Source: a virus (lineage: Duplodnaviria > Heunggongvirae > Uroviricota > Caudoviricetes). From it: DNA of 64,000 nt. Below, piece by piece: positions 13,647-34,455 of the stretch. The stretch spans positions 66,082-130,081 of the IMG/VR virus record IMGVR_UViG_3300038443_000660; one strand, given 5' to 3'. The notes below the pieces were generated by a model. That model was not told the origin of the DNA. It made no database searches and worked only from the letters and a program-made list of their open reading frames with translations. Within the stretch, counting starts at the first letter, position 1; each line of letters opens with the position of its first letter. The position numbers and the translations under genes were made by a program.

Positions 13647-14067
13647 TTGTAAACATCCTCAATTCATTTCTCTTGGCCATCAGTAGTTTTCCAAGATGAT
13701 TGTGACCGACACCATCACAAACGCCCCAAAATTTATCTCCCCATGTGTTCCCCTCTACCAATTCTTCATCGCCCGTCGCTAGTAATTTGTCGGCTAATTC
13801 TCGATCTTCAAATTTGAAATTCAGCCACATGCACATGACCGGAATTTTTATTTTATCCCAATCTTTTCGCATATCGCAAAACTGGCCAAGTATCTTAGCT
13901 TTACCCGGCGTTGGTGCGTTTCTGATTTCTTCCCGTTGGGCTTTGTTTCTGGTCTTACATGCCTGATATCCATGTTCAACGGTAGGATATAATTTACCAC
14001 CAAACACGATTGGTGATTCGTAAAAATTTGATAAGAAGCGATATTCGCCGTGGAAATTGTCAATCAT
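13639..14067 (-). CDS. NADAR-domain protein (YbiA-like N-glycosidase / ADP-ribose processing)
   Basis: FLSNFYESPIVFGGKLYPTVEHGYQACK...GNTWGDKFWGV is the NADAR/DUF1768 signature. Confidence 0.65.
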   Translation of the reverse strand: MIDNFHGEYRFLSNFYESPIVFGGKLYPTVEHGYQACKTRNKAQREEIRNAPTPGKAKILGQFCDMRKDWDKIKIPVMCMWLNFKFEDRELADKLLATGDEELVEGNTWGDKFWGVCDGVGHNHLGKLLMAKRNELRMFTNG

Positions 14068-15088
14068 TTTTTAATTCGTTGATTTCTTTGGCGTTTCCGA
14101 AAAACCAATGGGTAGCGGTTTGAACATGGTTTTCCCTGACATATTTCCCGACATTATTACGAAAATCTCTCCACAAGAAATCCCCCGCTCGTCGGATGAC
14201 AAAGCCTTCCACGTTGGCGGATTTTCCGTTAACTTCTCGGATGATTCTTTCAAGTTCTTTTTCGTCATATTTTCCTCGATACAGAATAGGAACGTGAGTG
14301 ATTCCTAATAGATTGAACCATTCTACAGTTTCATCCCATGGCAGACATCTCAAACCATGCCAAATAGAGAACCCCATGAGATATGACGGTAGATTATCAT
14401 ATTTGATTGAGTGTTTGGCATATAAATTTTCCGCACAAATCCGCCAATCATCCGGCAAGTCATAGGCAAAATTTTGTGCGAAATTTTTTGTCCAATCTCT
14501 GGACCAGTGATTGCGACCATCCACGGAACGAGCATGGATATATCCGTCCGAATAAATTGTGGTATTTTCACCATCCATTTTTTCGGTAATGACAACATCT
14601 TGACCGTGGAAAAAGTCCATGGATTTCATCATGCGGTCATCATCATTCATGCCGGGAGACATAACGACATGATAAGTCCGTGGGTACTTCATTCTGGTAG
14701 TGTATAAATCAAGAACACCACCTTGTTTCAAAATCTTTTGGACAGATTCGTCATCAAACAATTCGCCACGAACACGCTGCCCATTTTCTAAAACAATATC
14801 TCCCCATTTTGTGTAGGAAACATCGGAATAAAAATGTTCTGGCAAAGCAGGTTTCAATATGCCTGCATATTCTCTGATTTGCTCGACAGATATTAATGTT
14901 TGTTCACATTCAATATGATGCTTTTCACAAACGGAAGCGCCGTTTTCGAGATAGTAGCCGCCATCAGAGAACAATCGCCTTTCCAATATATGGTGAGCGT
15001 CAACAGCATCTTCACCACAGACAACGCATTTATGGTTGTCTCTGGCAAACACACCTTCTCTAAAATCGTCTCTGGACAGTAGTTTCAT
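14060..15088 (-). CDS. HNH endonuclease domain fused to RNA-ligase (Rnl-family nucleotidyltransferase) domain
   Basis: N-term HKCVVCGEDAVDAHHILERR...CEKHH (HNH); then EKMDGEN (KxDG motif I), VEGFVIRR (motif IV) and NVGKYVRENH (motif V). Confidence 0.55.
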   Translation of the reverse strand: MKLLSRDDFREGVFARDNHKCVVCGEDAVDAHHILERRLFSDGGYYLENGASVCEKHHIECEQTLISVEQIREYAGILKPALPEHFYSDVSYTKWGDIVLENGQRVRGELFDDESVQKILKQGGVLDLYTTRMKYPRTYHVVMSPGMNDDDRMMKSMDFFHGQDVVITEKMDGENTTIYSDGYIHARSVDGRNHWSRDWTKNFAQNFAYDLPDDWRICAENLYAKHSIKYDNLPSYLMGFSIWHGLRCLPWDETVEWFNLLGITHVPILYRGKYDEKELERIIREVNGKSANVEGFVIRRAGDFLWRDFRNNVGKYVRENHVQTATHWFFGNAKEINELKND

Positions 15089-15266
15089 AAAAAGAATCCT
15101 TTAGCATAATCAATACACTAAAGGATTAAGTTTGTCAATGTTAAATCAATGAATAACCGATTAACGCTACGAGTACGATTATCCAGAACAAACCAATGAA
15201 AAATGAAAATTCACCGTTTGAATATCTAAACCATATCTTAAACCAGTCTGGCATTTGTCGCTCTAA

Positions 15267-15908
15267 TCACTGAATGTATAGAGTTGGGTAGGCAAGGAAG
15301 GCGGTCCATGCCGCCGTCCCATTCTTCTTCAAGTGACGGAGCCGCCCCTTGATTTCCGAAAGCTTGAACTTCGGCTTGATATCAGCCTCGATGTTAGCCA
15401 TATAGGTCCAAACAACATCCGTGTACCGACCCTTAGCATCCTTGGCATCACTCATGGCGATACCGACCTTCTGGACACGAGTCTTGCTCCACTCGGAATA
15501 TCCACCGTAAACTCGTTCAGGACCAACCCAGAACAGAACACCGGTAGTGCCGACCGGAACCTTGCGGCCCTTGACAACCGTAACAGTATCACCCTTTACA
15601 GGCTTACGGAGTGCAGCAAGATATCCGGCAAAAACATCACGGCGAAGCTTCTTATAAGCCCAAGCATCAGCCTTGGCCTTATTCTCGGCAGTAACATCAA
15701 GAGAGGCAGTACCACCACCAGCGAACCGAGTCGTTGCATACTCATACTTAGTGATTTTCTGGTTCTCGTCATCCCATGCAATTACATAGAAATCCGAGTC
15801 GTGATAGCCGTTATACTCACGCATGGCGATAACACCGTCCTGAAACAGAACCTTCTCACCACCGTCACGATTAGGCATATAAACAGGCATGACAATCTCC
15901 ATTTCCAA
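15267..15908 (-). CDS. hypothetical protein
   Basis: 213 aa, GC-richer ORF; promoter-like TTGACA at 15954-15959. Confidence 0.45.
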   Translation of the reverse strand: MEMEIVMPVYMPNRDGGEKVLFQDGVIAMREYNGYHDSDFYVIAWDDENQKITKYEYATTRFAGGGTASLDVTAENKAKADAWAYKKLRRDVFAGYLAALRKPVKGDTVTVVKGRKVPVGTTGVLFWVGPERVYGGYSEWSKTRVQKVGIAMSDAKDAKGRYTDVVWTYMANIEADIKPKFKLSEIKGRLRHLKKNGTAAWTAFLAYPTLYIQ

Positions 15909-15969
15909 CCTCGATTATTTACATAATCAAAATTTATAAGATTGTCAAGTTATTAAATTATCAAAATTC

Positions 15970-16521
15970 TTACATATCATCGGTAAAGAATTTTGCAGGA
16001 TTGTATAATTGATGAAGCCGCTTTAGAGATTCTTTTGCTGTTTTGTGAACGATAAATGTGCCACCAGAATTAACCCATAGGTCCATATATTTTGTTCTGT
16101 CATCAATTAGAATGTCGCCGGGAGAACAGTAAAAGTGTTTCTCTTTCGATTTACAAACAATCGTCGGAATGTTCGGAAAATGTTCTCTACCCCAACGAAA
16201 TTTTTGTAAATATCCCCATTCGGCTGGCGAACCGGTTAGAATAGCAACGTCAAAATTATTATCGATAGCCCATTCTGAAACACCAGATACCAATTCAAAA
16301 GCATCCGGCATAGGTTTGAGTCGTTCAAAGAAAAACGGGTCAATAGAATGTGTATGATTCCACATTTCTTCTTTGGTCATTCTTCGCCTAATTGTTTCAG
16401 CGTCAAATTCCCAAAATTCAAACCATCGCTGATTAAAATCTGCGAGTACCCCATCCATATCGATGTAAACTGTGTTGTCAGTCATAGGTTGTCTTTTATT
16501 TTGTGATGAACATATAATCAA
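15970..16521 (-). CDS. 5'(3')-deoxyribonucleotidase (NT5C/HAD family)
   Basis: VYIDMDGVLADFNQRWFEFW at the N-terminus is typical of NT5C-type deoxyribonucleotidases. Confidence 0.7.
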   Translation of the reverse strand: MIICSSQNKRQPMTDNTVYIDMDGVLADFNQRWFEFWEFDAETIRRRMTKEEMWNHTHSIDPFFFERLKPMPDAFELVSGVSEWAIDNNFDVAILTGSPAEWGYLQKFRWGREHFPNIPTIVCKSKEKHFYCSPGDILIDDRTKYMDLWVNSGGTFIVHKTAKESLKRLHQLYNPAKFFTDDM

Positions 16522-16703
16522 TTTTTTCGTTAAGAAAATTTAATACATTTTGTGCATTTTGTTTGGTGCTGTTTCGAAGAACCATACAAATAGATAAATC
16601 ACTATCTGAACAAATTATATAATAACTCGTATGTTTTTGGTTATTGTTGGTTGAATTGCGTTCGATTTCTTTAATTTCAAATTGCATTTCGAACCTTTGA
16701 AAT

Positions 16704-16780
16704 TTGGTGCCAGATTGTGGTTTCGATCCACATCCTATAGTTCTTCAAACTATCGCTTCTACCAAGTTAGCTTATCTGGC
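16704..16780 (-). tRNA. tRNA-Phe (GAA)
   Basis: Acceptor GCCAGAT/ATCTGGC, anticodon loop TTGAAGA, T-loop TTCGAAA-like (GGATCGAAACC), CCA encoded. Confidence 0.65.
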
Positions 16781-16782
16781 AT

Positions 16783-16865
16783 TGGTGCTGGTGGAGAGAC
16801 TCGAACTCCCGATGTTTGTATGACGCCTTACAAGAGCGTTGCAGTCGCCGCTGTGCCACACCAGC
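16783..16865 (-). tRNA. tRNA-Thr (UGU), atypically long (83 nt)
   Basis: Acceptor GCTGGTG/CACCAGC, anticodon stem ACGCT/GGCGT with loop CTTGTAA, T-loop TTCGAGT; 12-nt variable region. Confidence 0.5.
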
Positions 16866-16875
16866 ATTCTTACTA

Positions 16876-16904
16876 TATTTATAACAAAAACAATGGTTTG
16901 TCAA
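16876..16904 (-). promoter_or_regulatory. sigma70-like promoter upstream of the tRNA-Thr/Phe pair
   Basis: Minus strand: TTGACAAACCATTGTTTTTGTTATAAATA. Confidence 0.45.
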
Positions 16905-16957
16905 TAGATAAATGGGAGAAGTGTTTAATTTCTCCCATTTATCTTGGTTAGCAAAGG

Positions 16958-17494
16958 TTAACGGCGACCCTTGCCCTTATCGCCCTTATGCCCATTATTG
17001 GAATTATCCTTATCAACCTGTCCCGGAGGGCCGGAATGATGGTGATTTTTATCACCATAGCCGTTACCGGGCTTATCCCTATCGGGCGTGTTCGCATGAC
17101 CATGACCATGACCATGATTACCAGCGTGACCATGATTACCATGGTTTCCGTGATTGCCGTGGTTTCCATGATTACCATGATGGTCGTGATGACCGTGGCT
17201 GTGATGCCCATGATGGCCATGGTGGCCATGATGTCCGTGTCCATGTCCCGGATTTGTAGGCCCGTTTCCGTCATCACCGCCGCCAGAACCATCGTCACCA
17301 CCGGACGGGTCTGTTGGGCTAGTCGGACTGGCTACTGCATTACGAACGGCTGGATGGTCCCCAGAGCGAACGCAACGCATATCATGATACGGCTTGGCAA
17401 GACACTCGTAGCTGACATTCGGACCAGCGAACGCATATCCGGTAACGAACAGAGTTGCGACACAACTCATTACAAACACAAAAAACTTGTTCAT
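16958..17494 (-). CDS. secreted histidine-rich (HGH/GNH repeat) protein
   Basis: Signal peptide MNKFFVFVMSCVATLFVTGYAFA; then HGHGHHGHHGHHGHHSHGHHDHHGNHGNHGNHGNHGNHGH encoded by GC-rich 15-nt tandem DNA repeats. Confidence 0.6.
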   Translation of the reverse strand: MNKFFVFVMSCVATLFVTGYAFAGPNVSYECLAKPYHDMRCVRSGDHPAVRNAVASPTSPTDPSGGDDGSGGGDDGNGPTNPGHGHGHHGHHGHHGHHSHGHHDHHGNHGNHGNHGNHGNHGHAGNHGHGHGHANTPDRDKPGNGYGDKNHHHSGPPGQVDKDNSNNGHKGDKGKGRR

Positions 17495-17629
17495 ACTCAC
17501 TTCTCCATCATTTTCGTGTTTCAAAATGAAACACTAGTACATGACTCGTACCATTACGAGTCATTAGTTCACATATATACGAGAAATCTATAAATTACAA
17601 GTGTTCTCTTATAATATGGTAAATATTAT

Positions 17630-17941
17630 TTACCACAAATCATAGTTGGTTAAGTCGAATTTTTCACCGGATGAATGTTCGACAACATAGATAACCCCAA
17701 TTGAAGTAGGAGTCATCTGATAAGTAAACTCACCACCGATAGCGCCCAATTCCTCAATCGGAACTTCGACTTTCTTTTTCCAAGTTTGGAATTTTTTCAG
17801 AGTGGCTTTATCCACTTGAATCGTCAGACCGCAGAAGTCCATATCAACTTGATTGGCAATTTTCTTTTTTAATTTTTCCTTGCGGTCAGGGGAAAACAAC
17901 TCAACTAACTTGTTTAATTTTTTTGTCATAATTATCACCAA
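17630..17941 (-). CDS. hypothetical protein
   Basis: 103 aa ORF. Confidence 0.4.
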   Translation of the reverse strand: MVIIMTKKLNKLVELFSPDRKEKLKKKIANQVDMDFCGLTIQVDKATLKKFQTWKKKVEVPIEELGAIGGEFTYQMTPTSIGVIYVVEHSSGEKFDLTNYDLW

Positions 17942-17952
17942 TTCAATATTTT

Positions 17953-18027
17953 TGGAGCGGGCAACCGATACCGCCTCGGTCTTTCCAGTTTGGAAAACTG
18001 GCGCACATCTATCTATACCATACCCGC
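17953..18027 (-). tRNA. tRNA-Gly (UCC)-like with aberrant D arm and T-loop
   Basis: Acceptor GCGGGTA/TGCCCGC plus CCA, anticodon stem CCAGT/ACTGG with loop TTTCCAA; T-loop GGCGGTA is non-canonical and the D stem is poor. Confidence 0.4.
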
Positions 18028-18035
18028 TTATTTAA

Positions 18036-18236
18036 TCAATAATCCCAAATGACCAAATCGGCTTTGCCTCTAATAACCAGCCATAATGCTCTTAGCGTTC
18101 TTCGAACAGAGAATATTCTTTCTGGTCTGGCAAACCCAACCTTACCATCCTTTGTTTTATACATAGTCATATTAGACGGATATGTCAAATGATTAATATG
18201 GTAAATATTGGGGCTAGTAGGCATTTTACTGCGCAT
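18036..18236 (-). CDS. hypothetical protein
   Basis: 66 aa ORF. Confidence 0.3.
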   Translation of the reverse strand: MRSKMPTSPNIYHINHLTYPSNMTMYKTKDGKVGFARPERIFSVRRTLRALWLVIRGKADLVIWDY

Positions 18237-18237
18237 T

Positions 18238-18432
18238 TTACTGCTTTCCTACAAATTCTTTGGCTTCGGCCTCGGTATCACACACTTTGATAACCTGCCA
18301 CTTGAATTCAGGGTCATCGTCATCGAAATGTACCAACGTCATATTCCATACGTTGAATTTACCATCAAGACGACTGCCAATTTCAAACGGCAGACTATCG
18401 GTGAACCAATTAGAAGTTTCGATCTTGTTCAT
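18238..18432 (-). CDS. hypothetical protein
   Basis: 64 aa acidic ORF. Confidence 0.3.
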   Translation of the reverse strand: MNKIETSNWFTDSLPFEIGSRLDGKFNVWNMTLVHFDDDDPEFKWQVIKVCDTEAEAKEFVGKQ

Positions 18433-18460
18433 GTTTTATTTATGCCTTCTATTAAGAAAG

Positions 18461-19621
18461 TTACTGGAATTCCGTTAAATTTTTGCCCTTGCGGTTCAAA
18501 TAATCTTCGGAAACGAATTTGAGAATCACTCTGCCTAGTTCATCGTTTCGCTGTTCCCTAATTGGAGTAACAACTACACCCTCACGGATATTTTCACCAT
18601 TTCCAACTACAGTTTCACCATCAACATATTTTGATACTTCCTCTTGCGTATCTACAATGTCAAGAATAGGGACATGTTGAATATCAAGTTGTTTGAAGAA
18701 CTCGTATTTAAGATCGGCATCCATGTAACCGGTAATGTCCATGAAATCAAATGCTCTAAAGGTTGGTGTTTTTTGTGAATAGTGCAAATCTTGAACACCA
18801 ACACCAAATATTTCACCAAACAAGAAGTATGGACTAATTGACACGCCGATTTGTTTGATACTGTCAATAATACCAGTTTCTTTTAGAGTTTTAACATATA
18901 AATTCTTTGCATTGTTTTCATTATCTTTGAAAACTAGCCCAGATGCACCGAAACCCTTGGAAAATACAACAATCGAATTGCCCTTTCCATCAGAAATCAA
19001 ATCAGGATGTTCAAGATTTGGAATGAATCCAATTCCACAGAAAGTTCCATGCAACTTTTCAGTAATGTAGAACGGACCAATATCGTTTGTCAAAACATTT
19101 GGATATTTTTTGACGTTTTCGATGTCGTATTTTGGAATAGACACGTAAGAGCCGATGTATAAAATTTCACCGTCCATATATGCTGGAATTACTGGTTCAT
19201 ACTTGGTAATACCCAAGAACTCTGAAACGTCATCCCCGACTTGTAGGCAATGTGAAGAATCGCCTACAGAATTATAAAGGATGTTCCCGCCCATTTTCTT
19301 GATTACGGGTAGTAGAATACCTTCTGATAGGACGTTCCGAAGACGAATTGGTCTTACTCGATTACCATCGGGTCCACCAAGCATCCCCTTGTTATTTTTT
19401 TCATCCCAGAAGCCATCTTTCAAAATGTAATCTGGAACGATAGAATCAGCCTGTACATAGACAACCCAATCGCCGGGATTATATCTATGTGAACCATCTT
19501 CAAGCTTGCCAGAAACAATTTGATAACTGAAACCTTTAAGTTTGATAATCGATAACCTATCAGCATTCGGATGGTCGATTACATTCTCGACCACCATTAC
19601 TTTTGATTCAAAATTTGCCAT
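18461..19621 (-). CDS. RNA ligase (Rnl family) with N-terminal tRNA-binding OB domain
   Basis: N-term VIDHPNADRLSIIKLKGF...LRNVLSEGIL (CsaA/Trbp111-type tRNA-binding domain); ITEKLHGT (motif I Lys), REGVVVTP (IV), RVILKFVSEDY (V). Confidence 0.6.
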   Translation of the reverse strand: MANFESKVMVVENVIDHPNADRLSIIKLKGFSYQIVSGKLEDGSHRYNPGDWVVYVQADSIVPDYILKDGFWDEKNNKGMLGGPDGNRVRPIRLRNVLSEGILLPVIKKMGGNILYNSVGDSSHCLQVGDDVSEFLGITKYEPVIPAYMDGEILYIGSYVSIPKYDIENVKKYPNVLTNDIGPFYITEKLHGTFCGIGFIPNLEHPDLISDGKGNSIVVFSKGFGASGLVFKDNENNAKNLYVKTLKETGIIDSIKQIGVSISPYFLFGEIFGVGVQDLHYSQKTPTFRAFDFMDITGYMDADLKYEFFKQLDIQHVPILDIVDTQEEVSKYVDGETVVGNGENIREGVVVTPIREQRNDELGRVILKFVSEDYLNRKGKNLTEFQ

Positions 19622-19848
19622 AGTTTCTTTCGTTTTCTATTAATTTTTTTATTAAGCGTTTCAGAACCGAGAAATTCTTTTTTAGCAATCAAGCCATGTG
19701 CTTGACCTATCCAGTCAACTACATCTTCACGGCTTTTCGGATTACATTGTATAATAGGGTCAACACACAAATTTGTGTGTTTCAAAGCATCACGAACTTC
19801 TTTGGGAAAATTATCGTAATAAAGATTAAGATAGCGTATCTTGTTCAT
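19597..19848 (-). CDS. hypothetical protein
   Basis: 83 aa ORF. Confidence 0.35.
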   Translation of the reverse strand: MNKIRYLNLYYDNFPKEVRDALKHTNLCVDPIIQCNPKSREDVVDWIGQAHGLIAKKEFLGSETLNKKINRKRKKLWQILNQK

Positions 19849-19864
19849 GTAGTCAATTACATTT

Positions 19865-20413
19865 TTATTCGTCTTGAAAGAAATCTACAATATTTTTAAG
19901 AACATTCTTGTTCATGAGAATTTCGAAATGATTAGACTCAACTGGAATATAGTTGGCATCTTCGATACTCATTTGACTGGCTATAGAGACGACGCCATCG
20001 TTCCTTGAAAATAACCATGGATTATTACCGGAACATGTTACGTAAAGTTGATGCTGGACCGATATCGATTGTGTGTGTTTAATCAGTTTCTTTAATTCAT
20101 GACCAATTGTTTTTGGTGGCCAAAACGAGCCTATACCACCAATTGGTGCGGCCAAAGTTGCGATTTTGTTGACATTCAATCCAGTATTAGACAGAGCGAT
20201 TGCAAGAACACCACCTAGAGAATGTCCGACAATGTTTACAGGTTCTTGACTTTTGTTTAAAATTTCATTTCGAATCGTATCCAAAACCTTTAACAAACGT
20301 TCCGATGAATCATATTTTACAACGATTTCATTCTTCCATTTGTGAATTTCTCGAAAATAATTAAAAGTAGATGGGGCAGAGAATGCCCCATGTATGAATA
20401 CCGTTGGATGCAT
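19865..20413 (-). CDS. alpha/beta-hydrolase (lipase/esterase-like)
   Basis: Nucleophile elbow VGHSLGG; 182 aa. Confidence 0.55.
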   Translation of the reverse strand: MHPTVFIHGAFSAPSTFNYFREIHKWKNEIVVKYDSSERLLKVLDTIRNEILNKSQEPVNIVGHSLGGVLAIALSNTGLNVNKIATLAAPIGGIGSFWPPKTIGHELKKLIKHTQSISVQHQLYVTCSGNNPWLFSRNDGVVSIASQMSIEDANYIPVESNHFEILMNKNVLKNIVDFFQDE

Positions 20414-20414
20414 A

Positions 20415-21455
20415 CTAGTATTTAGGTGTCGGTATCATATCCTCGATGATAGTTTTGACTTGTTCGGTTCTTTCTTCAAAATCAGAAGATGAAATAATTT
20501 CAAACGGTTTCTGCCATGCCTCCAATTGAGCCATGATTGAATGATAAAAATTCCAGCGCTTGGATTCGTTATCGGAAATTCGAAAACCGTCTTGCACCCA
20601 TGGAACAGTAGGAGCCAACAAAATATATTTGTCAATTTGTTGGTTTTCGGCAAACTTATATAATTCAGAGTTGTCATCATTTGGAAGCCAGATATCAGCA
20701 TACAGTGCGGTAATGAGTGCTTCCGTATCGGTAACGACAATTGGACACAACTCGTTCGAACGGGCCGAATCAATCATCATTTTTTGAGTTTTTTGAATTA
20801 TACGGAAATCCGTATAATCCAATTCATTTTTGCGATTGACGGCAAGAAAGCGCCCATATTCAGGAACCGGCCATGCAGTCAGGTCGCTTCCAAGTTCTTT
20901 GACAAGAGTCGATTTACCGGTTGATTCTGGACCAACAACAGCTACGACTTTCGACAAATCATGTCGAACATAAGACGGAAGCATGCTGAAGTTCACTTCA
21001 AAATTGTTTCTGATATCAGTAGCAGAGATTGGAACAGTTTCCCTGTCAGGGTCTACCGGCACCCAAACACAATTCAATTCCTTGGCGATTCGTTCACCAT
21101 ACAAATCAGAAGTGAATACATGTGATGGATGAATTGAAATGAAATTGAGAATGCGTTTTGTATCATCTAACCATCTAATCCAGTATGATTCATCAGTAAT
21201 CGTACCGAATGCATCCTTCTGAACGCTCTTATCGAATTCTTCTTGTTCGACAATAACAACATCACCACGACGATTATAATCGAAATTTGACACACATTTC
21301 CGAATCCAGCGCTTTCGAGCATCAAATGAATATGGGTCATTGTCATCAACACCAACAAGGACAATGAGATAATCACAATTTACCATTGCTGTGTTGATAA
21401 GGAACTCATGTCCCTTGGTGAACGGAAGAAATTTACCTAGAGTAAGACCAATCAT
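20415..21455 (-). CDS. nadR: NadR-like bifunctional NMN adenylyltransferase / ribosylnicotinamide kinase
   Basis: N-term GKFLPFTKGHEFLI (nucleotidyltransferase H-x-G-H-type motif); C-terminal P-loop VGPESTGKST. Confidence 0.65.
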   Translation of the reverse strand: MIGLTLGKFLPFTKGHEFLINTAMVNCDYLIVLVGVDDNDPYSFDARKRWIRKCVSNFDYNRRGDVVIVEQEEFDKSVQKDAFGTITDESYWIRWLDDTKRILNFISIHPSHVFTSDLYGERIAKELNCVWVPVDPDRETVPISATDIRNNFEVNFSMLPSYVRHDLSKVVAVVGPESTGKSTLVKELGSDLTAWPVPEYGRFLAVNRKNELDYTDFRIIQKTQKMMIDSARSNELCPIVVTDTEALITALYADIWLPNDDNSELYKFAENQQIDKYILLAPTVPWVQDGFRISDNESKRWNFYHSIMAQLEAWQKPFEIISSSDFEERTEQVKTIIEDMIPTPKY

Positions 21456-21931: not shown

Positions 21932-21944
21932 ACTCTAATTTCCT

Positions 21945-25943: not shown

Positions 25944-25955
25944 GACACAATCCTT

Positions 25956-26219: not shown

Positions 26220-26266
26220 ATCATCTCCAATATGGTTGTCAACTGAAAATTCAATTGTTTTTATAA

Positions 26267-27547: not shown

Positions 27548-27568
27548 TTCGCTTTTCGTATATAAGAA

Positions 27569-27644
27569 TGGCTCTGGCCGCTGGGATCGAACCAGCCTAT
27601 ACAGGGTAACAACCTGTCGCCTCCGCCGAGTTGGCTTGACCAGA
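27569..27644 (-). tRNA. tRNA-Asn (GUU)
   Basis: Acceptor TCTGGTC/GGCCAGA, anticodon stem ACAGG/CCTGT with loop TTGTTAC, T arm GCTGG-TTCGATC-CCAGC, CCA encoded. Confidence 0.65.
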
Positions 27645-27679
27645 ATATTTCTTGATACTATTCTATTTATATCGTTCTG

Positions 27680-27925
27680 TCAATAACTTTTTTCTTTGTA
27701 TCCAGAACTTTCAAACTCAACAATCAAATCAAACCAGTTCTTAAATGGAGTTTCGTTCATTCGATTTGCAAGCTTTTCCAATTTGTATCTGGCATTGATT
27801 TTTGTGTAGATGAAATCTGGTGGAGTATAATAGAGAATGCCTTTTTCCAAAATTCTAATATACAATCTTTTCTCGAATTTTTTGACTTCGGCTGTGTAAT
27901 ACAATTCTGGAAACACTACGGTCAT
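27680..27925 (-). CDS. hypothetical protein
   Basis: 81 aa ORF. Confidence 0.35.
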   Translation of the reverse strand: MTVVFPELYYTAEVKKFEKRLYIRILEKGILYYTPPDFIYTKINARYKLEKLANRMNETPFKNWFDLIVEFESSGYKEKSY

Positions 27926-28161
27926 TTGTCTATTTCTTCATATCCATATTCAAGACCACAGGAAGTCCCCAACAGTTCATTAATATTGAATATGTTAGGC
28001 GCTTTCTGGTGATATGGTTCATCCACACCAACGGCATATTGATCGCCATTCAGGCAATCCGTGCAAATATGTTTCAACAATTCTAATCGTGCTTGATTGA
28101 CAGAATCAAACTCTTTTGTCCATCCCGGAATAGAATATTTGTGAAGAAGAATTTTACACAT
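27922..28161 (-). CDS. hypothetical protein
   Basis: 79 aa ORF. Confidence 0.35.
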   Translation of the reverse strand: MCKILLHKYSIPGWTKEFDSVNQARLELLKHICTDCLNGDQYAVGVDEPYHQKAPNIFNINELLGTSCGLEYGYEEIDK

Positions 28162-28357
28162 TTTCTAAATATTCAGAAATTTTTGTTCGCAACGCCGAGT
28201 CACAATTGGAGTCAAATCCATATCGAAGCCCTTCAATGAAGGCTTTCTTGGCGATGTCGGTTTTCAATGCTTCTCGAAAAATGCCTGACATATGTCCAAA
28301 ATTTTCTTTTGGAAAGGTTGTGTCGAACCATTCATCAAAAATTTCATCCATGTTCAT
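28154..28357 (-). CDS. hypothetical protein
   Basis: ORF-track N-terminus runs through two tRNAs; truncated to the internal Met. Confidence 0.3.
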   Translation of the reverse strand: MNMDEIFDEWFDTTFPKENFGHMSGIFREALKTDIAKKAFIEGLRYGFDSNCDSALRTKISEYLENV

Positions 28358-28365
28358 TCTTTCTT

Positions 28366-28443
28366 TGGAGATTCCGGCAGGATTCGAACCTGCAACTTCA
28401 TGATTCGTATTCATGGGCTTTATTCCAGTTAAGCTACGGAACC
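28366..28443 (-). tRNA. tRNA-Arg (ACG)
   Basis: Acceptor GGTTCCG/CGGAATC, D stem GCTT/AAGC, anticodon stem CATGA/TCATG with loop ATACGAA, T arm GCAGG-TTCGAAT-CCTGC, CCA. Confidence 0.7.
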
Positions 28444-28449
28444 AAATGG

Positions 28450-28523
28450 TGGTAGGCAATGAGAGAATCGAACTCCCGACTATTGGGTGTAGACCAAGTG
28501 TTTTCCCGCTAAACTAATCGCCC
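28450..28523 (-). tRNA. tRNA-Val (UAC)-like, C at position 33
   Basis: Acceptor GGGCGAT/ATTGCCT (G-U wobbles), T arm GGGAG-TTCGATT-CTCTC, anticodon loop TCTACAC, CCA. Confidence 0.5.
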
Positions 28524-28558
28524 ATACAATGTATTTATACTTCAAATATGACTAATTG

Positions 28559-28819
28559 TCAAACTTTATCAATCATTTCTGACAACATAATGAGAGTGCG
28601 GTTTGCGTGGTCCAATGCTTTATTGCGGCCAGTTTCGTCCACTACAACCCATTTACCTTCAATAATATTGGAGCATATGCAGTGACCAGCATTGCATGGG
28701 ACAAAACATCGAAGGCCATGAGCGGCAGGAACGACATATAATTTTCCGGTCACGCCTTGGAGACGTAACAGTTCCGCCGCCGTTTTCAGTTGGTTTTTCA
28801 AATCATCAAAAGCAGTCAT
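28559..28819 (-). CDS. hypothetical protein
   Basis: 86 aa ORF. Confidence 0.35.
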   Translation of the reverse strand: MTAFDDLKNQLKTAAELLRLQGVTGKLYVVPAAHGLRCFVPCNAGHCICSNIIEGKWVVVDETGRNKALDHANRTLIMLSEMIDKV

Positions 28820-29369
28820 ATTTTATACCGAATCAATCAATGTAAGATATAAATGCAACGAAGCAAGCTAAACCAGCAAATCCAGCCATAACTAATAGTG
28901 CAAATACCAATCCAGTTGAAATATAGCTGGCTAATACGACGCACACTGCTGTAAGAACGTAAAGCCAAATAATGCATTTCAAATTCACAGACATAATAAA
29001 ATTTCCTTTTTTATGGTGCCAACAAAGTCAAAGCCACAATAAAAATAGCCAATGAGGTATTGAAGAAATCGATGTAAGCTTTCTTGCGTTCGCCCTTCTT
29101 AAATTTTATCAAGCCTGTCGCAAAACACATGCCAGCGCTAAACGTTAGAACATATGTTGCGATAAATAGTATCGGAGTCATCATATTTGTCATCCTTTTA
29201 CAAAAGATATGAAGTTAGTGCTGCTAGAAGAAATGCCGCCGAAAATATCAAGCAAAACACGGAATCTCGTGTTTGATGTATCACATTAAAATGTATAGCC
29301 AAAGAGAAATACATTCCTGAACAAAACATCAAGGTAAAGACGGAAATTACGGTTAAAATACTTGTAAAT

Positions 29370-29756
29370 TCATTCGGTGTCAACATAAAATTCCTTCATC
29401 TTTTTCGTTTCGGCATTTTCATGGAAACGTGTTCTGCTTCGAACAAATTTCTTTGCTCCACGAACAGCCTTGGCCATGCCACGATGGCCATTGGTAAAAT
29501 CGTTGCTGATAGATGCACCAATTTGTTTATCAGCAAGTTTTGATAAATTTCCCCAACCATGTAGAGATTTATCGAGATAGCGGGTTCGTCCCACACGCTG
29601 ATAAGATTCAGTAGGATCAGTGTTTTCGATTTCATGCATAGTTGGACGGGCTTCATCCGCAATGCGTGAGGCTGGAATTGAATAGCCATTACGATACGTA
29701 TTGTGGCGCAAAGCAACCGGCTTCCGATTCTTTCGTCTATGATTGATATCAGTCAT
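29370..29756 (-). CDS. basic hypothetical protein
   Basis: 128 aa, Arg/Lys-rich. Confidence 0.35.
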   Translation of the reverse strand: MTDINHRRKNRKPVALRHNTYRNGYSIPASRIADEARPTMHEIENTDPTESYQRVGRTRYLDKSLHGWGNLSKLADKQIGASISNDFTNGHRGMAKAVRGAKKFVRSRTRFHENAETKKMKEFYVDTE

Positions 29757-29983
29757 TTCAAAGATTCCTGAATAATGTTCTTGATATAATAATCTGTCTC
29801 TATTTCGGTGTCAAATTCTTTTATTTCCACTGAACAATTGTGGAAATCAGAATAAATTATGTTCATCAGGTCATTTACAGAAATATTTTCGCTCAAATAC
29901 CCGAAATTCTCTTGGTATTGAGAATACGAACCAAGAAAAATTTCTCCATATTCTCCAATACTTATGACAAGATGACGGGTCAT
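29753..29983 (-). CDS. hypothetical protein
   Basis: Internal Met start abuts the stop of the upstream gene. Confidence 0.3.
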   Translation of the reverse strand: MTRHLVISIGEYGEIFLGSYSQYQENFGYLSENISVNDLMNIIYSDFHNCSVEIKEFDTEIETDYYIKNIIQESLK

Positions 29984-30591
29984 ACCGTCACCGTATAGTC
30001 TTCTGGTGCATAGTTCTTTAGATTGATTCGGCAATAACCAATCTTCTGGTTCCAATAAACATTCATCTTTCGATTCCGCCTATAAAGCGTGGTTCGCTTG
30101 AATTCATCTGCCGGAACACCAGAGAATGTAATTGGTTTCTTGAACTTGACTGTCGCACCTTCTGGAATAGCTGCCGCTACCAACTTCTTCTGATTGCGGC
30201 AACCGTCACGCCACTTCTTGGCGTGTTCACCACCGTATTCATCAGTGACGATTTCAGACAGAAGGCCCAGAATCTTTGCAGGGCAATCCCAATAATAGGG
30301 TCCAGCATCTTCGCTCATATCCTTCCAAAGAAACTCTCCCTTGGAACGCTTGGTGAGAACTACTGCACCATAGACGAAGGCATTTTTGTCATCGGTCTTC
30401 CAACACTTGTATGTGTCAACCCGCTCACCCTTCACGACAACACGAATTGCCGCATAGACCGTAGTTCCGACCATTCGTGTCATGAGAACGGAAGAAACAA
30501 TCTTGTCATTCTCATAATTGTAATCATCGGTAACAAACTTGGAAGGATTCGTTACCTTCTGATAAACACCATTCCAACCCATTTCGAACAC
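29980..30591 (-). CDS. hypothetical protein
   Basis: 203 aa ORF downstream of a TTGACT/TATAAT promoter-like site (~30615-30640). Confidence 0.45.
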   Translation of the reverse strand: MFEMGWNGVYQKVTNPSKFVTDDYNYENDKIVSSVLMTRMVGTTVYAAIRVVVKGERVDTYKCWKTDDKNAFVYGAVVLTKRSKGEFLWKDMSEDAGPYYWDCPAKILGLLSEIVTDEYGGEHAKKWRDGCRNQKKLVAAAIPEGATVKFKKPITFSGVPADEFKRTTLYRRNRKMNVYWNQKIGYCRINLKNYAPEDYTVTV

Positions 30592-30645
30592 CTTTCTATC
30601 AATCTCGAATCTATATTATACAAGATTGTAGAAAAGTCAAGTATG

Positions 30646-31338
30646 TTATTTTAGAGTTTCCAGAATTTTCATGACTTTCGCCGCATCAATTTTTCCTTTA
30701 TAATGTTTCATCGCCTGTCCGACAAACCAGTTATAAAGTTGTGGGTTGAGTTTCGCTTTCTCCCACTGCTTATCATTTTCATTGATGACGTTTTTCAAAA
30801 ATATTTCAATTTCTTCGTTTGAAATATCTTCAAAAACATGTCGCTTACGAGCAACATCATATTCCAAGTTCTCATTCAAAATATCCGTCAGGATATTCAA
30901 TTTCTGCTTAAATTTCAATTCTGTATCGGATAGTAGAAAAACCAAATCATGAAATTTTACAGCGTTAATCAATGCTTTTCCGTGTAGCTTGTGGTCTTTA
31001 CCATAAACAGACACTGGACCAAGATACAACTTTATCGTTTCTGATACATAATCTATTGAATTTTCAAAAATAATTTGTAAATTAGCCAAGAGAATATGAA
31101 AATCAGGATGAAATCCATCGAAAATATTTTCGATATCATCTGAAATTAATGACTCAATATCGATTCCATGCTTCTCTTTGATATGTTTTTTGGGAGAATC
31201 AACAACCCAAGAAAATTTTTTGAACCAAGCTTCGTCATTCAATTTGGTCCAAACAGAAGAATATTCTTTAGTTTCATCGTCAAATGTTCGACCGGTTATC
31301 CAATCTCTATCTGTGCTGATAATCTGAATATGCTTCAT
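30646..31338 (-). CDS. protein with C-terminal GatB/YqeY-like domain
   Basis: C-terminus LYNWFVGQAMKHYKGKIDAAKVMKILETLK resembles the YqeY/GatB C-terminal motif. Confidence 0.4.
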   Translation of the reverse strand: MKHIQIISTDRDWITGRTFDDETKEYSSVWTKLNDEAWFKKFSWVVDSPKKHIKEKHGIDIESLISDDIENIFDGFHPDFHILLANLQIIFENSIDYVSETIKLYLGPVSVYGKDHKLHGKALINAVKFHDLVFLLSDTELKFKQKLNILTDILNENLEYDVARKRHVFEDISNEEIEIFLKNVINENDKQWEKAKLNPQLYNWFVGQAMKHYKGKIDAAKVMKILETLK

Positions 31339-31541
31339 TTTTCATCTTCCGGTAATTCAAATAATCCAAAGAATTCAACTTCCACCGGGTCAATCATAAC
31401 CCAAACTTTTGGTCCTGCTTTGCGACGGACACAACCAAATGATTTATTACAGGAATTGCAATGCCAGATCGCACCAGCTTGCATATCTTCCTCTTTACAT
31501 TCAGTTTCTTCACCACAAATGCAGGACCAAATATATTTCAT
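31335..31541 (-). CDS. zinc-ribbon protein
   Basis: CICGEETEC...CNSCNKSFGC; 68 aa. Confidence 0.4.
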   Translation of the reverse strand: MKYIWSCICGEETECKEEDMQAGAIWHCNSCNKSFGCVRRKAGPKVWVMIDPVEVEFFGLFELPEDEK

Positions 31542-31544
31542 CGA

Positions 31545-32447
31545 TTACTTCAATTCATCCTTGATACCGGGCTTGTCTACATTTTTCAATGTATCATCGT
31601 TCATGTTCAGCATGAAATTGGAATCCGCACCCATAATCTTTGGCAGGATGCCATCCCACTTCTGAATCATCATGTATCGAACCAATGTAGTGGTCAACGA
31701 TTCGGTAAGAAGCTTATTGGCCTTCGCCTGTGCATCAGCTTCAAGAATGATAGATTCTGCCGTTCCTCTAGCTTCCTCAATCTTCTTTTGCGCTTCCGCC
31801 TTAGTCTGTTCGATTTCATTTTGACGCTGTTGTGTCTTTTGGGTTGCTTCAATCTTGGCATTGATAGAAGCGACAACATTATCAGGAAGCCTTAGCGTTC
31901 CTACCCAATAAACACGTTCGATAACGATACCGATTGGTGAAACCTGTTGACGGACTCGATCTTCAACGGAACGAATCAAATCTTCCTTACCCGCACCATA
32001 GACGGATTCAATCCTAAGCCTAGATGCTTCGGCCACCATCGCATCACGAACCATGTTACGGAGATAAATTGACGTGATTTCCTCAACACCACGGCGATAC
32101 TTCTGGAAAATGACCGGAACCATGTCAGGCTTGATTGAATACGAAATGCCAACATCGGCATTCACGTTCATACCTTCGACAGTTTGGAAAGTCAGAGATT
32201 CATCTTCTGTACCAGTTTCGTCAGGTTCACGAGTCCACACATAGTTCTGTGTAAACGTTGGGAAAACGTGAAGTTCCTGATTCCAGCCAACCCAATATCG
32301 TCCCGGCCCAAGGGCTTCCGCATCAACACCCTTGTCAGAACCATAAAGGTTGATACGAACGCCGACATTACCAGCCGGAACTTTTCCACATGCAGCAAGC
32401 ATGAGTGAAGCACCGATAATCGCTAAAACAGAATGCGCTTTCTTCAT
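31545..32447 (-). CDS. SPFH/Band-7 (prohibitin/HflK-like) lipoprotein
   Basis: Lipoprotein signal MKKAHSVLAIIGASLMLAACG; SPFH-type core followed by a coiled-coil Q/E/K-rich tail. Confidence 0.55.
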   Translation of the reverse strand: MKKAHSVLAIIGASLMLAACGKVPAGNVGVRINLYGSDKGVDAEALGPGRYWVGWNQELHVFPTFTQNYVWTREPDETGTEDESLTFQTVEGMNVNADVGISYSIKPDMVPVIFQKYRRGVEEITSIYLRNMVRDAMVAEASRLRIESVYGAGKEDLIRSVEDRVRQQVSPIGIVIERVYWVGTLRLPDNVVASINAKIEATQKTQQRQNEIEQTKAEAQKKIEEARGTAESIILEADAQAKANKLLTESLTTTLVRYMMIQKWDGILPKIMGADSNFMLNMNDDTLKNVDKPGIKDELK

Positions 32448-32453
32448 TGTATT

Positions 32454-32669
32454 TTACATACCCTTGATTTTGTTAATAATATACTTGCCTTCATCGGACA
32501 TATACCAAATCCTGATAAGATATCCGATTGCAACTAGTGTTGACGGAATTGAAATAAATCCGAGAATCACCAATACATTTGACGGCGCTGAAATTAGTTC
32601 GGGCGCTACCACACCAAAGCATGTGATAATTAAGAAAATTATCGTGCTTGCCACAAAAACCGTTACCAT
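32454..32669 (-). CDS. small membrane protein
   Basis: 71 aa, two TM helices. Confidence 0.35.
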   Translation of the reverse strand: MVTVFVASTIIFLIITCFGVVAPELISAPSNVLVILGFISIPSTLVAIGYLIRIWYMSDEGKYIINKIKGM

Positions 32670-32885
32670 CTAATTCGCTCCATAAAAAATTGCTATCATA
32701 ACTGCAATGAACACGCAGATTACAAAGAAACCGATAACCATTTGATTACTAGTTGAAGTTGACGTTGAGGAAATCAACCAATCATCGTCTTTCCAGTCCG
32801 AAAACAAAGGTTTCACTTCTTTTTCGGAAGGTTTCTTGGTGAGAATGTCATCAAGAAATTTGGAAAGTTTATCAAGCATACCCAT
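32670..32885 (-). CDS. small membrane protein
   Basis: 71 aa with a C-terminal TM helix. Confidence 0.35.
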   Translation of the reverse strand: MGMLDKLSKFLDDILTKKPSEKEVKPLFSDWKDDDWLISSTSTSTSNQMVIGFFVICVFIAVMIAIFYGAN

Positions 32886-33999
32886 TTTTTATCTTCTCGT
32901 CAATCCATTTTGTTCTAATTCGTTTCAATTCTTTACCTAATTCTGGTCCCGGTTCAAAACCTTGTTGAATAAGTAACAAAGAACTACCAACCGGCCACGA
33001 ATCCAGATTTGGATAATCGTTAAAAAATTTGTTCCAAGCATCTGAATTTCGCATTACACCGACAGAAGCCAGATATTGCACCCATGCTCGTTTCTCGATG
33101 TTATTCAACGTGTAATCCAGAATATGATAATTGTCGGTTCTGGAATTGTTGAGAACAAAATATTGCTTGACAAAATCTTGTTCAACAGAAGACGCTTTAT
33201 AACGAGATTTCAGTACATGTAAGACATCTTCGTTGAAGTTAAAGAGCGCTATCAACCGCAACAGATAACTTTTATTGCGAAAATCATTGTAATGAAGACA
33301 CGAATGAGGAATATCGATATATGGTCCGATAGACCTTGACATAGCCTGAATGACAGGGAAATTTCCTATTTCCAAAATTTTTGTTAGTTCTGCCCAGATG
33401 CGTTCACCAGAGATAGATTTAAGACCATCGCCAAGCTTTTCGATGATAGCCAAATTGTCTCTAAGAGTCTGGTCATAAACAATAGTTTTCATCTTACCCA
33501 AGAACCTGAAATATCTCAAAATTCTTAAATAATCTTCCCGAATGCGATCTTCTGCATTACCCACAAATTGTAGATGGCATTGCTTCAAATCTCTCTTGCC
33601 ATCAAAATAATCATAAATTTCACCAAATCGGTCCATGAACATAGCATTGATTGTGAAATCACGGCGGGAAGCGTCCAACCTCCAATCATCGGTAAATTCC
33701 ACGACCGCATGGCGACCATCGGTTTCCTTGTCGATTCGTAATGTAGTTACTTCAAACGGAATTTTATCGACAACAATCGTTACCGTACCATGCTTAAGAC
33801 CGGTAGGAATGACTTCTTTATCAAGTCTAGTGAATATCTCGACAATTTGTTCTGGCAATGCCGTAGTAGCAATGTCGATATCATGCGGCTGGATACCGGA
33901 AAGAAAATCACGCACTGCACCACCGGCAATTCTGGCCTGAAAGCCAGAATTTTCAATCGTTTGCATAATCCATTCGGCAATGGGATTCAGAGATTTCAT
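32872..33999 (-). CDS. cca: tRNA nucleotidyltransferase (CCA-adding enzyme)
   Basis: ARIAGGAVRDFL...PHDIDIAT...TLRID...RRDFTINAM are class II CCA-adding head-domain motifs. Confidence 0.75.
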   Translation of the reverse strand: MKSLNPIAEWIMQTIENSGFQARIAGGAVRDFLSGIQPHDIDIATTALPEQIVEIFTRLDKEVIPTGLKHGTVTIVVDKIPFEVTTLRIDKETDGRHAVVEFTDDWRLDASRRDFTINAMFMDRFGEIYDYFDGKRDLKQCHLQFVGNAEDRIREDYLRILRYFRFLGKMKTIVYDQTLRDNLAIIEKLGDGLKSISGERIWAELTKILEIGNFPVIQAMSRSIGPYIDIPHSCLHYNDFRNKSYLLRLIALFNFNEDVLHVLKSRYKASSVEQDFVKQYFVLNNSRTDNYHILDYTLNNIEKRAWVQYLASVGVMRNSDAWNKFFNDYPNLDSWPVGSSLLLIQQGFEPGPELGKELKRIRTKWIDEKIKNGYA

Positions 34000-34455
34000 T
34001 CAATCCGCCATTTTATCTATAAATTTCTTTAGATAATCAATACCCGAAACTTCAAGAATAATTCTCTCGCCTCTCCGACGCTTCTTTAAAATAGACAGAA
34101 TCTTATCTAAGCCATGAAAATTATTTGTAGTAAATAGACCAAATACTTTTGACACGATAACAAACTTGATTTTTTCATTAATATAGATGGTAAACGAATA
34201 CGCAGACATAAACTTTGAATATTCGAATGTTAAACTAACATTGTTTGGAAAACGATATTTTATATCGCAATTGATGTCGTTTAAATTATAGGAATAAGTC
34301 CATTGAATTGGTATCGAGGAATCCGAAATGTACTTTATGATAGCATCGACTAATGGGTCATTTTTCTCGGCCACATAACGAAATTCGTTTTCAGATGCGT
34401 AGACAAACTTTGATACAAATTCGGCGTTATTCATTGTTTGAATTTTCTTTAACAA
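34000..34455 (-). CDS. hypothetical protein, paralog A of tandem pair
   Basis: Shares DPL[VI]..I.[KR]YI...S..W.Y..NL..I.CDI.Y with the next gene. Confidence 0.45.
   Translation of the reverse strand: MLKKIQTMNNAEFVSKFVYASENEFRYVAEKNDPLVDAIIKYISDSSIPIQWTYSYNLNDINCDIKYRFPNNVSLTFEYSKFMSAYSFTIYINEKIKFVIVSKVFGLFTTNNFHGLDKILSILKKRRRGERIILEVSGIDYLKKFIDKMAD

Follow-up and report, generated by a model that had tools for sequence, protein, structure and literature searches.

Candidate RNA-repair and translation-maintenance genes scattered through the tRNA-bearing arm of an uncultured jumbo phage

The window analysed here, a stretch of 64,000 nucleotides (nt), was read as part of a 242,456-bp contig from JGI metagenome 3300038393 (Ga0395904_0000039; window base 1 lies at about base 24,037 of the record), together with the 10 kb past each of its ends (left flank L007, right flank L013), giving 84 kb of sequence in total. 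It represents the accessory arm that carries the tRNA genes of an uncultured jumbo phage, whose contig spans at least 242 kb; nearly all open reading frames (ORFs) and all tRNA genes of the window lie on the minus strand, at a GC content of 36–41%. Interspersed with the tRNA genes are RNA ligases, phosphatases and phosphoesterases of end-healing type, a CCA-adding enzyme and a protein resembling a peptidyl-tRNA hydrolase, which probably make up a layered but loose and mosaic set of translation-maintenance genes. The central parts are as follows.

1..217 (−): lambda-phosphatase/Pnkp-type metallophosphoesterase; first 72 codons of 232 amino acids (aa), the remainder lying left of the window
214..672 (−): stand-alone HAD 3'-phosphatase of Pnkp type, without a kinase domain (PF25109 HAD_PNKP, 50.4 bits)
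966..61546 (−): field of 19–20 tRNA genes (ARAGORN and Rfam), spaced about 1–9 kb apart
14060..15088 (−): HNH–RNA ligase fusion; HNH at aa 1–62, conserved middle part at aa 63–163, Rnl2-like adenylyltransferase at aa 164–317
18461..19621 (−): Rnl5-family (DraRnl/NgrRnl-type) RNA ligase; N-terminal OB domain PF21189 at aa 11–106, PF09414 at aa 183–370
23347..23799 (−): divergent PTH2-like peptidyl-tRNA hydrolase; PF01981 at 24.3 bits (cut-off 23), N-terminal half only
32872..33999 (−): class II CCA-adding tRNA nucleotidyltransferase without an HD domain; PF01743 PolyA_pol head, 113 bits
46861..47319 (−): small 2H phosphoesterase of 152 aa; 2H-SAK at 28.5 bits (cut-off 27), its sole Pfam match
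Window −4449 to −5615 (L007 15116–16282), in the left flank outside the window: T4 Rnl1-type ligase of 388 aa; PF09511 109 bits, T4_Rnl1_C 32.7 bits

A first-pass annotation of the same DNA had proposed an extended tRNA-repair kit, and its gene calls proved sound: every ORF that it named is present on the minus strand where it was placed, including the HNH–ligase fusion, the class II CCA enzyme, the PTH2-type protein (a marginal Pfam score, supported by homologues and structures), two calcineurin-like phosphatases, and the HAD, NT5C and NADAR proteins (PF25109, PF06941 and PF08719). Its figure of about 20 tRNA genes agrees with 19 ARAGORN calls and one Rfam extra. All of the named genes have a significant family match except the truncated ORF at 1–217, recognised in the window by its motifs only; since most of these matches are significant one by one (2H and PTH2 only just exceeding their Pfam cut-offs), chance cannot explain them. 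The CCA enzyme, 2H protein, HAD, PTH2-like protein and both window ligases keep their catalytic residues. Genes of repair type lie 1–15 kb apart with dozens of small unknown ORFs in between, so the window is a gene-rich neighbourhood and not an operon. Translational coupling is seen in two gene pairs, HAD/metallophosphoesterase and HNH–ligase/NADAR.

A megablast search of 20 kb of the window against 50,697 phage records returned zero nucleotide matches, and there is therefore no close isolate from which annotation could be transferred. The best single-protein matches are to Salicola phage SCTP-2, Ralstonia phage RsoM2USA, Caulobacter and Brevundimonas jumbo phages, Acinetobacter phage ME3 and metagenomic 'huge phages'. 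SCTP-2 is the nearest isolate, at 60% identity for one protein; the phage itself is seen in metagenomes only, and exact-protein look-ups reveal near-identical copies of the contig in several further metagenome samples.

The HNH–ligase matches PF09414 RNA_ligase (111 bits, aa 164–317), phrog_24030 over its whole length and several HNH PHROGs at aa 8–64 (E ~1e-6). Across an alignment of 32 homologues, C21, C24, D30, H32, H33, N49, C54 and H58 of the HNH part are invariant, forming a zinc/metal finger with the catalytic His and Asn of an HNH nuclease, as are K170, D172, G173, E220, E294, G295 and K315 of the ligase part, an adenylyltransferase domain closest to Rnl2 with its catalytic lysine in place. 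The Rnl2 C-terminal domain (needed for nick sealing) is not present, the protein stopping ~25 residues past motif V, and the extra modules (HNH and aa 63–163) are N-terminal; the enzyme thus has a distinct architecture. There are more than 5,000 homologues, the best 120 of which are 57–94% identical (mostly ~60%) over full length and include one on a Leptospira chromosome; identity is ~60% between the window phage, other large phage-sized contigs and the Leptospira chromosome. The family is highly conserved, appears in the literature consulted as a computational prediction only, and is the least understood part of the set.

The stop codon of the HNH–ligase gene is overlapped by 8 nt by the start of the NADAR gene. 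The same two genes are close together in a cousin phage (L022, a 261-kb contig from JGI 3300037418), whose HNH–ligase is 75% identical to that of the window: across its positions 5001–8573 the order is HNH–ligase, a 101-aa ORF, NADAR (0.3 kb downstream of the ligase), DUF4170, HAD_SAK_2 and Macro, an RNA-repair and ADP-ribose cluster tighter than the one in the window. The window ORFs past NADAR (13287–13646 and 13041–13277) have no family match. NADAR is not kept beside the HNH–ligase in SCTP-2, RsoM2USA, CcrBL9 or ME3, and a comparison of these four isolates with four other contexts found no shared ligase neighbour except the NADAR of the one cousin phage. ME3, the cousin phage and a 668-kb contig each carry an NT5C gene within a few kb of the HNH–ligase. 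A NadM–Nudix gene stands two genes from the HNH–ligase in SCTP-2.

The Rnl5-type ligase scores just under the cut-off of TIGR02306 DRB0094 (145.6 against 151 bits) and aligns with NgrRnl (5cot; phmmer E 4e-13). Motifs I, III, IV and V of the family are in place (K189 in KLHG, E270, E347 and K368), and residues D59 and K140, counted with the OB domain, align with the ATP-contacting D53 and K121 of NgrRnl. The first-pass annotation had given this protein a tRNA-binding OB domain of CsaA/Trbp111 type. The ligase and the OB domain both stand; the tRNA-binding label does not, PF01588 tRNA_bind reaching 13.3 bits (E 0.09, aa 9–39 only) against a cut-off of 27. We therefore rejected a CsaA/Trbp111/EMAP II assignment in favour of the Rnl5 N-domain. 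A MetRS C-domain (5h34) is matched at E 0.28, and an HPNADRL-like strand is shared. In NgrRnl the OB domain contacts ATP and promotes adenylylation, and tRNA binding is not its known role (PMC7261155).

Both window ligases match PF09414 and retain the nucleotidyltransferase lysine (K170 and K189), the two points on which their identity as RNA ligases had been staked. The count of two Rnl ligases falls short, since a third lies 4.4 kb past the left window edge. This protein aligns with T4 Rnl1 (2c5u, E 2e-29) through the KEDGS motif and the C-terminal domain, which in Rnl1 confers tRNA specificity, and scores 161 bits with TIGR02308 (cut-off 242). Added to the Rnl5 and HNH–Rnl types of the window, it brings the RNA ligase families of the phage to three.

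Two genes of end-healing type lie at the left edge of the window. The HAD protein matches phrog_415 and phrog_505 ('polynucleotide kinase'), the Pnkp1 phosphatase domain 4xrp_A (phmmer E 5e-7, DLDGT aligned) and, by tblastn, the phosphatase part of T4-like Pnkp genes, as expected of a HAD-type 3'-phosphatase. Its likely start is the ATG at 666, giving a 150-aa form that is the one on record; a 152-aa form has no exact-protein record and was set aside. The HAD stop codon is overlapped by the ATG of the metallophosphoesterase gene (ATGA), whose product carries GDVHG, GDYIDRG and GNHE motifs (Metallophos, 56.8 bits). The 2H protein has two HxT motifs (HIT at 57 and HIT at 131), with H57, H131 and T133 invariant over 35 divergent homologues; its family profile found no match among PDB sequences. 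Its candidate substrates are RNA 2',3'-cyclic phosphate ends or cyclic/2',5'-oligonucleotide signals. Beside it, a 735-aa protein (44468–46675, −) starts 185 nt past the 2H gene and matches the MXAN_6230/SCO0854 RING-domain family (294 bits, cut-off 600) and phrog_33734.

The left flank continues with the remainder of the metallophosphoesterase, a DPBB protein and a 417-aa P-loop protein (window ~−954 to −2207; L007 11621–12874), three genes after the HAD–metallophosphoesterase pair, and then the Rnl1 homologue 4.4–5.6 kb out. The P-loop protein has the Walker A sequence GGAASGKG and is of low complexity in its C-terminal half; homologues occur widely among T4-like phages of Klebsiella, Aeromonas and Cronobacter, all of them unannotated ('hypothetical'). 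This Zeta-toxin-like protein is the sole candidate for a 5'-kinase. Klebsiella phage Miro, in which a homologue of the P-loop protein is followed by a HAD gene, had suggested a split Pnkp; the Miro HAD is unrelated to the Pnkp-type HAD of the window (BLASTP E 1.9), and the Miro gene pair therefore lends no support. The P-loop domain of the NadR-like protein was rejected as an RNA kinase on its full-length AAA_28 and NadR match and its position next to PnuC.

Thirteen of the 19 ARAGORN tRNA calls pass the Rfam gathering score and six fall below it. The anticodons are Met CAT, Leu TAA, Phe GAA, Thr TGT, Glu TTC, Asn GTT, Arg ACG, Val TAC, Ser GCT, Leu CAA, Asp GTC, Ile GAT, Ser TGA, Arg TCT, Lys TTT, Gln TTG, Ile TAT and Pro TGG, with one undetermined. 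No tRNA genes occur in the 10 kb past either window end. Some calls are unusual (all −): the Rfam extra at 5760–5860 (101 nt, missed by ARAGORN), Thr TGT at 16783–16865 (83 nt), Lys TTT at 53567–53653 (87 nt) and 'Ile TAT' at 59448–59539 (92 nt, anticodon at position 31). These may have long variable arms or insertions, or may be miscalls. The 'Gln TTG' call (56899–56972, without CCA; Rfam tRNA 54.8 bits) is a tRNA-like element inside a GOLLD RNA (RF02032) at 56613–57036 (−), which is matched over its full length (168.5 bits, gathering score 150, E 1.6e-45). GOLLD RNAs form 14-mer nanocages, and tRNAs in the GOLLD linker are already known (PMC12286853).

The 3' CCA is genomically encoded in 17 of the 19 tRNA genes, and the CCA enzyme is therefore expected to serve repair or turnover and not maturation. 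E. coli Cca is likewise a turnover and repair enzyme where CCA is encoded. The best NCBIfam match of the window protein is NF009814, at 194.9 bits over full length against 126.5 for PcnB (both below their curated cut-offs), and its motifs are present: GGAVRD at aa 26, DIDIAT at 40, RRDFTINA at 112 and EDRIR at 150. The gene of an SPFH/Band 7 protein (31545–32447, −) is ~0.4 kb away from that of the CCA enzyme; in Leptospira, too, a Band_7 gene lies ~1 kb from the chromosomal HNH–ligase (L015/L016 4012–5121), possibly by coincidence.

For the PTH2-like protein, PF01981 is found in 12 of 18 homologues, one of which, from a Brevundimonas jumbo phage, is annotated as peptidyl-tRNA hydrolase. Its family profile matches four PTH2 structures, including 1rlk, 1q7s and 1xty (E ~2e-4), with the catalytic Asp aligned. 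The invariant residues K20, Q24, H27 and D108 comprise the GK..AQ..H segment and that Asp. The protein belongs to a divergent subfamily with a 30-aa insertion.

Further genes with a bearing on tRNA, nucleotides or NAD+, and a second metallophosphoesterase gene, are interleaved with these.

13639..14067 (−): NADAR-domain protein; PF08719 83.4 bits, TIGR02464 76.1 bits
15970..16521 (−): NT5C-type 5'-deoxynucleotidase; PF06941 39.1 bits
20415..21455 (−): NadR-like NMN adenylyltransferase/ribosylnicotinamide kinase; AAA_28 73.8 bits and CTP_transf_like, TIGR01526 167 bits
21945..22652 (−): PnuC transporter; PF04973 125 bits
30646..31338 (−): protein with a C-terminal GatB/YqeY domain, helical and tRNA-associated; PF02637 51.7 bits at aa 115–227, matching the GatB C-terminal region
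40077..40550 (−): small alarmone hydrolase (SAH) with an HD domain of SpoT/Mesh1 type; phmmer match to the (p)ppApp hydrolase 7smg, E 3.8e-28
41992..42411 (−): YqeY-like protein, a stand-alone GatB/YqeY tRNA-associated domain; PF09424 45.8 bits
42759..43598 (−): NadE NAD synthase; 341 bits
48985..49668 (−): second calcineurin-like metallophosphoesterase; PF00149 39.4 bits, phrog_1649, TIGR03729 32 bits

The SAH (HD_4, 24.5 bits) and the two GatB/YqeY proteins are tRNA-related items absent from the first-pass annotation. Some SAH enzymes reverse the pyrophosphorylation of the tRNA CCA end by toxSAS (bioRxiv 10.1101/2021.04.30.441581), and by analogy the window SAH may de-pyrophosphorylate tRNA 3' ends, stripping pyrophosphate from CCA ends modified by CapRel/FaRel2-type toxins; alternatively, its substrate could be (p)ppGpp or (p)ppApp. 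NT5C probably acts in nucleotide-pool metabolism and not in RNA end healing, and Pfam, NCBIfam and PHROGs hold no RNA-specific match for the metallophosphoesterase at 48985–49668. The view that end healing is divided among several proteins may hold for the HAD, the coupled metallophosphoesterase and the 2H protein, and fails for these two, which have no RNA link. PnuC, NadR and NadE form a module interleaved with RNA-repair genes that is not RNA repair as such and probably counters NAD+-depleting defences; NADAR fits this module at least as well as it fits RNA repair.

Beyond the genes listed, we looked for RtcB, RlaP (PF10127), Thg1, KptA/Tpt1 and Hen1 by Pfam scans and annotations (window ORFs of at least 60 aa and the called genes of both 10-kb flanks) and found none. 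Genes for thymidine kinase, for an MT-A70 methylase and for a nucleoside deoxyribosyltransferase lie in the 10 kb of the right flank, where none for RNA repair was found.

On balance we favour a model in which these genes form a loosely assembled, layered answer to attacks on translation, and for which we infer the following order of steps on RNA or tRNA substrates. About 20 phage tRNAs with encoded CCA would replace or dilute host tRNAs lost to defence nucleases. Where cleavage leaves 2',3'-cyclic phosphate ends, these could be opened by the 2H protein, the Pnkp-like metallophosphoesterase or both, and the remaining phosphate would be removed by the stand-alone Pnkp-type HAD to which the metallophosphoesterase is coupled. 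The 5'-OH would be phosphorylated by a kinase, perhaps the Zeta-toxin-like P-loop protein of the flank. Sealing would fall to three ATP-dependent ligases suited to different substrate geometries, the Rnl1 type acting on anticodon-loop breaks and the Rnl5 and HNH-fused Rnl2-like types on nicks in base-paired regions. The tRNA 3' end would be restored by the CCA enzyme, possibly with the SAH acting on pyrophosphorylated CCA ends, and the PTH2-like hydrolase would clear stalled or damaged tRNAs of peptidyl or N-blocked aminoacyl groups. Alongside, PnuC, NadR, NadE and NADAR may counter NAD+ depletion or ADP-ribose-based signals. The Rnl1 homologue in the flank and the coupled HAD/Pnkp-like metallophosphoesterase pair strengthen the repair reading, and the cousin phage favours it too, since NADAR, HAD_SAK_2 (an RNA-repair type) and Macro accompany its HNH–ligase. 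That tRNA repair serves counter-defence is a reasonable reading, as far as protein families can indicate function.

Several observations weigh against it. The toolkit genes are spread over ~55 kb and form no conserved cassette, the nearest relatives differing gene by gene, and the neighbours of the HNH–ligase are different in SCTP-2, RsoM2USA, CcrBL9, ME3, two large contigs and Leptospira. No polynucleotide 5'-kinase is recognisable in the window, whose only Walker A motifs belong to two AAA ATPases, NadR and a single 98-aa ORF, and the P-loop protein of the flank matches Zeta_toxin weakly (25.6 bits) and nothing in PDB or NCBIfam; because ATP-dependent ligases cannot seal anticodon-nuclease breaks without such a kinase, this gap weakens the case. 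Rnl5 enzymes seal nicks in duplexes, and the physiological substrate of the family is unknown (PMC7261155, PMC5397189). The PTH2 match is marginal and stays below the NCBIfam equivalog cut-off (19.4 against 126). The 2H protein had been called LigT-like; it is a 2H phosphoesterase, although fold comparison places LigT no nearer to it than anti-CBASS Acb1 or the viral 2',5'-phosphodiesterases. The coupled metallophosphoesterase scores 83.5 bits with TIGR04075 (bacterial Pnkp, positions 184–302) against 75.8 for PrpE and 75.3 for ApaH (Ap4A hydrolases), and its best PHROG is phrog_246, a NinI-like protein phosphatase. NT5C, the second metallophosphatase and NADAR have no demonstrated RNA role.

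These metallophosphoesterase scores, together with the lack of conserved synteny among relatives, also suit a heterogeneous accessory-gene region in place of a repair pathway, in which the enzymes serve unrelated processes and lie with the tRNA genes because both occupy a common early-gene arm. The 2H protein would then be an Acb1-like signal degrader and the metallophosphatases would hydrolyse Ap4A or, like NinI, dephosphorylate proteins; nucleotide pools would be shaped by NT5C and the HAD, and NADAR, PnuC, NadR and NadE would handle NAD+ and ADP-ribose. The Rnl5 and HNH–Rnl ligases would seal RNA–DNA hybrid nicks or ribonucleotide-containing DNA during replication or repair. Gene neighbourhoods favour such a view, the HNH–ligase adjoining thymidylate synthase, NT5C and dUTPase in the 668-kb contig (where NT5C lies beside the other two), gp32 and RecA-like genes in RsoM2USA, and DNA polymerase in another contig, as does the radiation sensitivity of Deinococcus on loss of DraRnl (PMC5397189). 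We nevertheless think it unlikely, though far from negligible: the HAD is specifically of the Pnkp phosphatase type and coupled to the metallophosphoesterase, a true Rnl1 with its tRNA-specific C-domain lies nearby, the sole Pfam match of the 2H protein is to the RNA-repair SAK clade, the CCA enzyme, PTH2 and the YqeY domains belong to tRNA-specific families, and the cousin phage keeps HNH–ligase and HAD_SAK_2 together. A purely domestic role, with the set serving the large tRNA supply of the phage itself and not counter-defence, is quite improbable in our judgement. The CCA enzyme would then mend exonucleolytic nibbling of highly expressed phage tRNAs, PTH2 would recycle peptidyl-tRNA drop-off products while late translation is intense, and the YqeY/GatB domains and ligases would aid tRNA processing or quality control. 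All of the tRNA-specific enzymes do lie inside the tRNA field, which ends where the window ends, the encoded CCA of 17 of the 19 genes leaves turnover and repair to the CCA enzyme, as in E. coli, and no defence target can be named. This would leave three ligase families and the 3'-end-healing phosphoesterases unexplained, however, as breaks with 2',3'-cyclic phosphate or 5'-OH ends do not arise in normal bacterial tRNA processing; Cca and Pth are already available from the host, and the NAD+ and SAH genes nearby suggest functions in conflict.

Within the repair reading, the HNH–ligase could conceivably be a self-contained 'trim-and-seal' enzyme, its HNH part trimming damaged ends to the 3'-OH and 5'-phosphate that its own ligase domain uses. 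It may then work with the translationally coupled NADAR protein in this phage lineage. We rate this idea as very unlikely; if true, it would bypass the kinase–phosphatase route and so account for the lack of a recognisable 5'-kinase.

Other genes of the window, all on the minus strand, have less evident connections to translation. A 172-aa protein (35937–36455) with a GSR..P...SGGA.GAD motif and a faint DprA match (DNA_processg_A, E 0.011) may be of SLOG type, a class of domain linked to phage ADP-ribose/nucleotide signalling. Four proteins in the tRNA field (3144–3779, 51436–51993, 27038–27547 and 57426–57956), comprising two free-standing HNH endonucleases and two T5orf172/MUG113 proteins, are likely to be mobile nucleases of homing type. 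A 188-aa predicted secreted protein (16958–17524) consists in part of long His/Gly/Asn repeats (HGHHGHHGHH...GNHGNHGNHG), has no family match and may bind metal. A GapR-like DNA-binding protein (12490–12750, 111 bits) and an NMT1_3/TAXI-like periplasmic binding protein with a signal peptide (41069–41980), an unusual phage cargo, complete the inventory.

If the favoured model is true, the T4 repair idea has been greatly expanded in large phages into a layered answer to host translation shutdown, with three ligase geometries, split end healing, 3'-end repair and peptidyl-tRNA recycling beside tRNA supply and NAD+ salvage. The HNH–ligase, Rnl5 ligase, HAD, 2H and PTH2-like proteins offer a compact set of small, apparently active enzymes for testing. 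Both the toolkit and this interpretation are already published for jumbo phages, which tells against novelty: the survey of Iyer, Anantharaman, Krishnan, Burroughs and Aravind (2021, Viruses 13:63, section 3.4.9; PMC7824862) catalogues an RNA-repair and translation-rescue complement of high tRNA counts, Rnl1- and Rnl2-family ligases (including Rnl2 with an N-terminal HNH), polynucleotide kinases, 2H phosphoesterases, PNK–HAD and Swiss-army-knife HAD phosphatases, occasional calcineurin-like phosphatases, CCA-adding enzymes and PTH2, read there as a counter to host attacks on translation. NADAR and NadR-type salvage are likewise described (PMC7824862, PMC9503650). As the same combination and the same reading are in that survey, a claim of novelty fails, and the window phage is a new example and no new category. 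It was not itself in the survey, and it differs in having three ligase architectures (Rnl1, Rnl5 and HNH–Rnl) and a HAD without a fused kinase, and in that RtcB, RlaP, Thg1 and KptA were not detected in the 84 kb covered. The three-ligase set including Rnl5, the kinase-less HAD coupled to a Pnkp-like metallophosphoesterase, and the SAH are worth recording.

Individual parts of the set can be compared with better characterised systems. The Rnl5-type ligase shares the OB-then-nucleotidyltransferase layout, the motifs and the ATP-contacting OB residues of Deinococcus DraRnl and Naegleria NgrRnl, and differs in being ~45 aa longer and below the equivalog cut-off. Compared with Acb1 and viral 2',5'-phosphodiesterases, the 2H protein has no detectable sequence similarity, its tblastn matches at E <1e-3 being unannotated jumbo-phage genes only. 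With the bacterial Pnkp/Hen1 system (Pnkp1–Rnl–Hen1 of Clostridium thermocellum and Capnocytophaga gingivalis) the window phage shares a metallophosphoesterase resembling TIGR04075 and a HAD resembling 4xrp_A; neither Hen1 nor a fused kinase–phosphatase–ligase was found in its 84 kb covered here, the domains being separate small proteins. The likeness to T4, where Pnkp and Rnl1 repair PrrC-cleaved tRNA-Lys, lies in the flank Rnl1 with its C-domain, in the homology of the HAD to the Pnkp phosphatase domain, and in the need of ATP-dependent ligation for 3'-OH and 5'-phosphate ends. As the first-pass annotation had noted, the set is larger than that of T4 and composed differently: the window phage splits healing over HAD, metallophosphoesterase and 2H genes in place of one Pnkp, with no 5'-kinase domain recognised, and adds two further ligase families, a CCA enzyme and PTH2.

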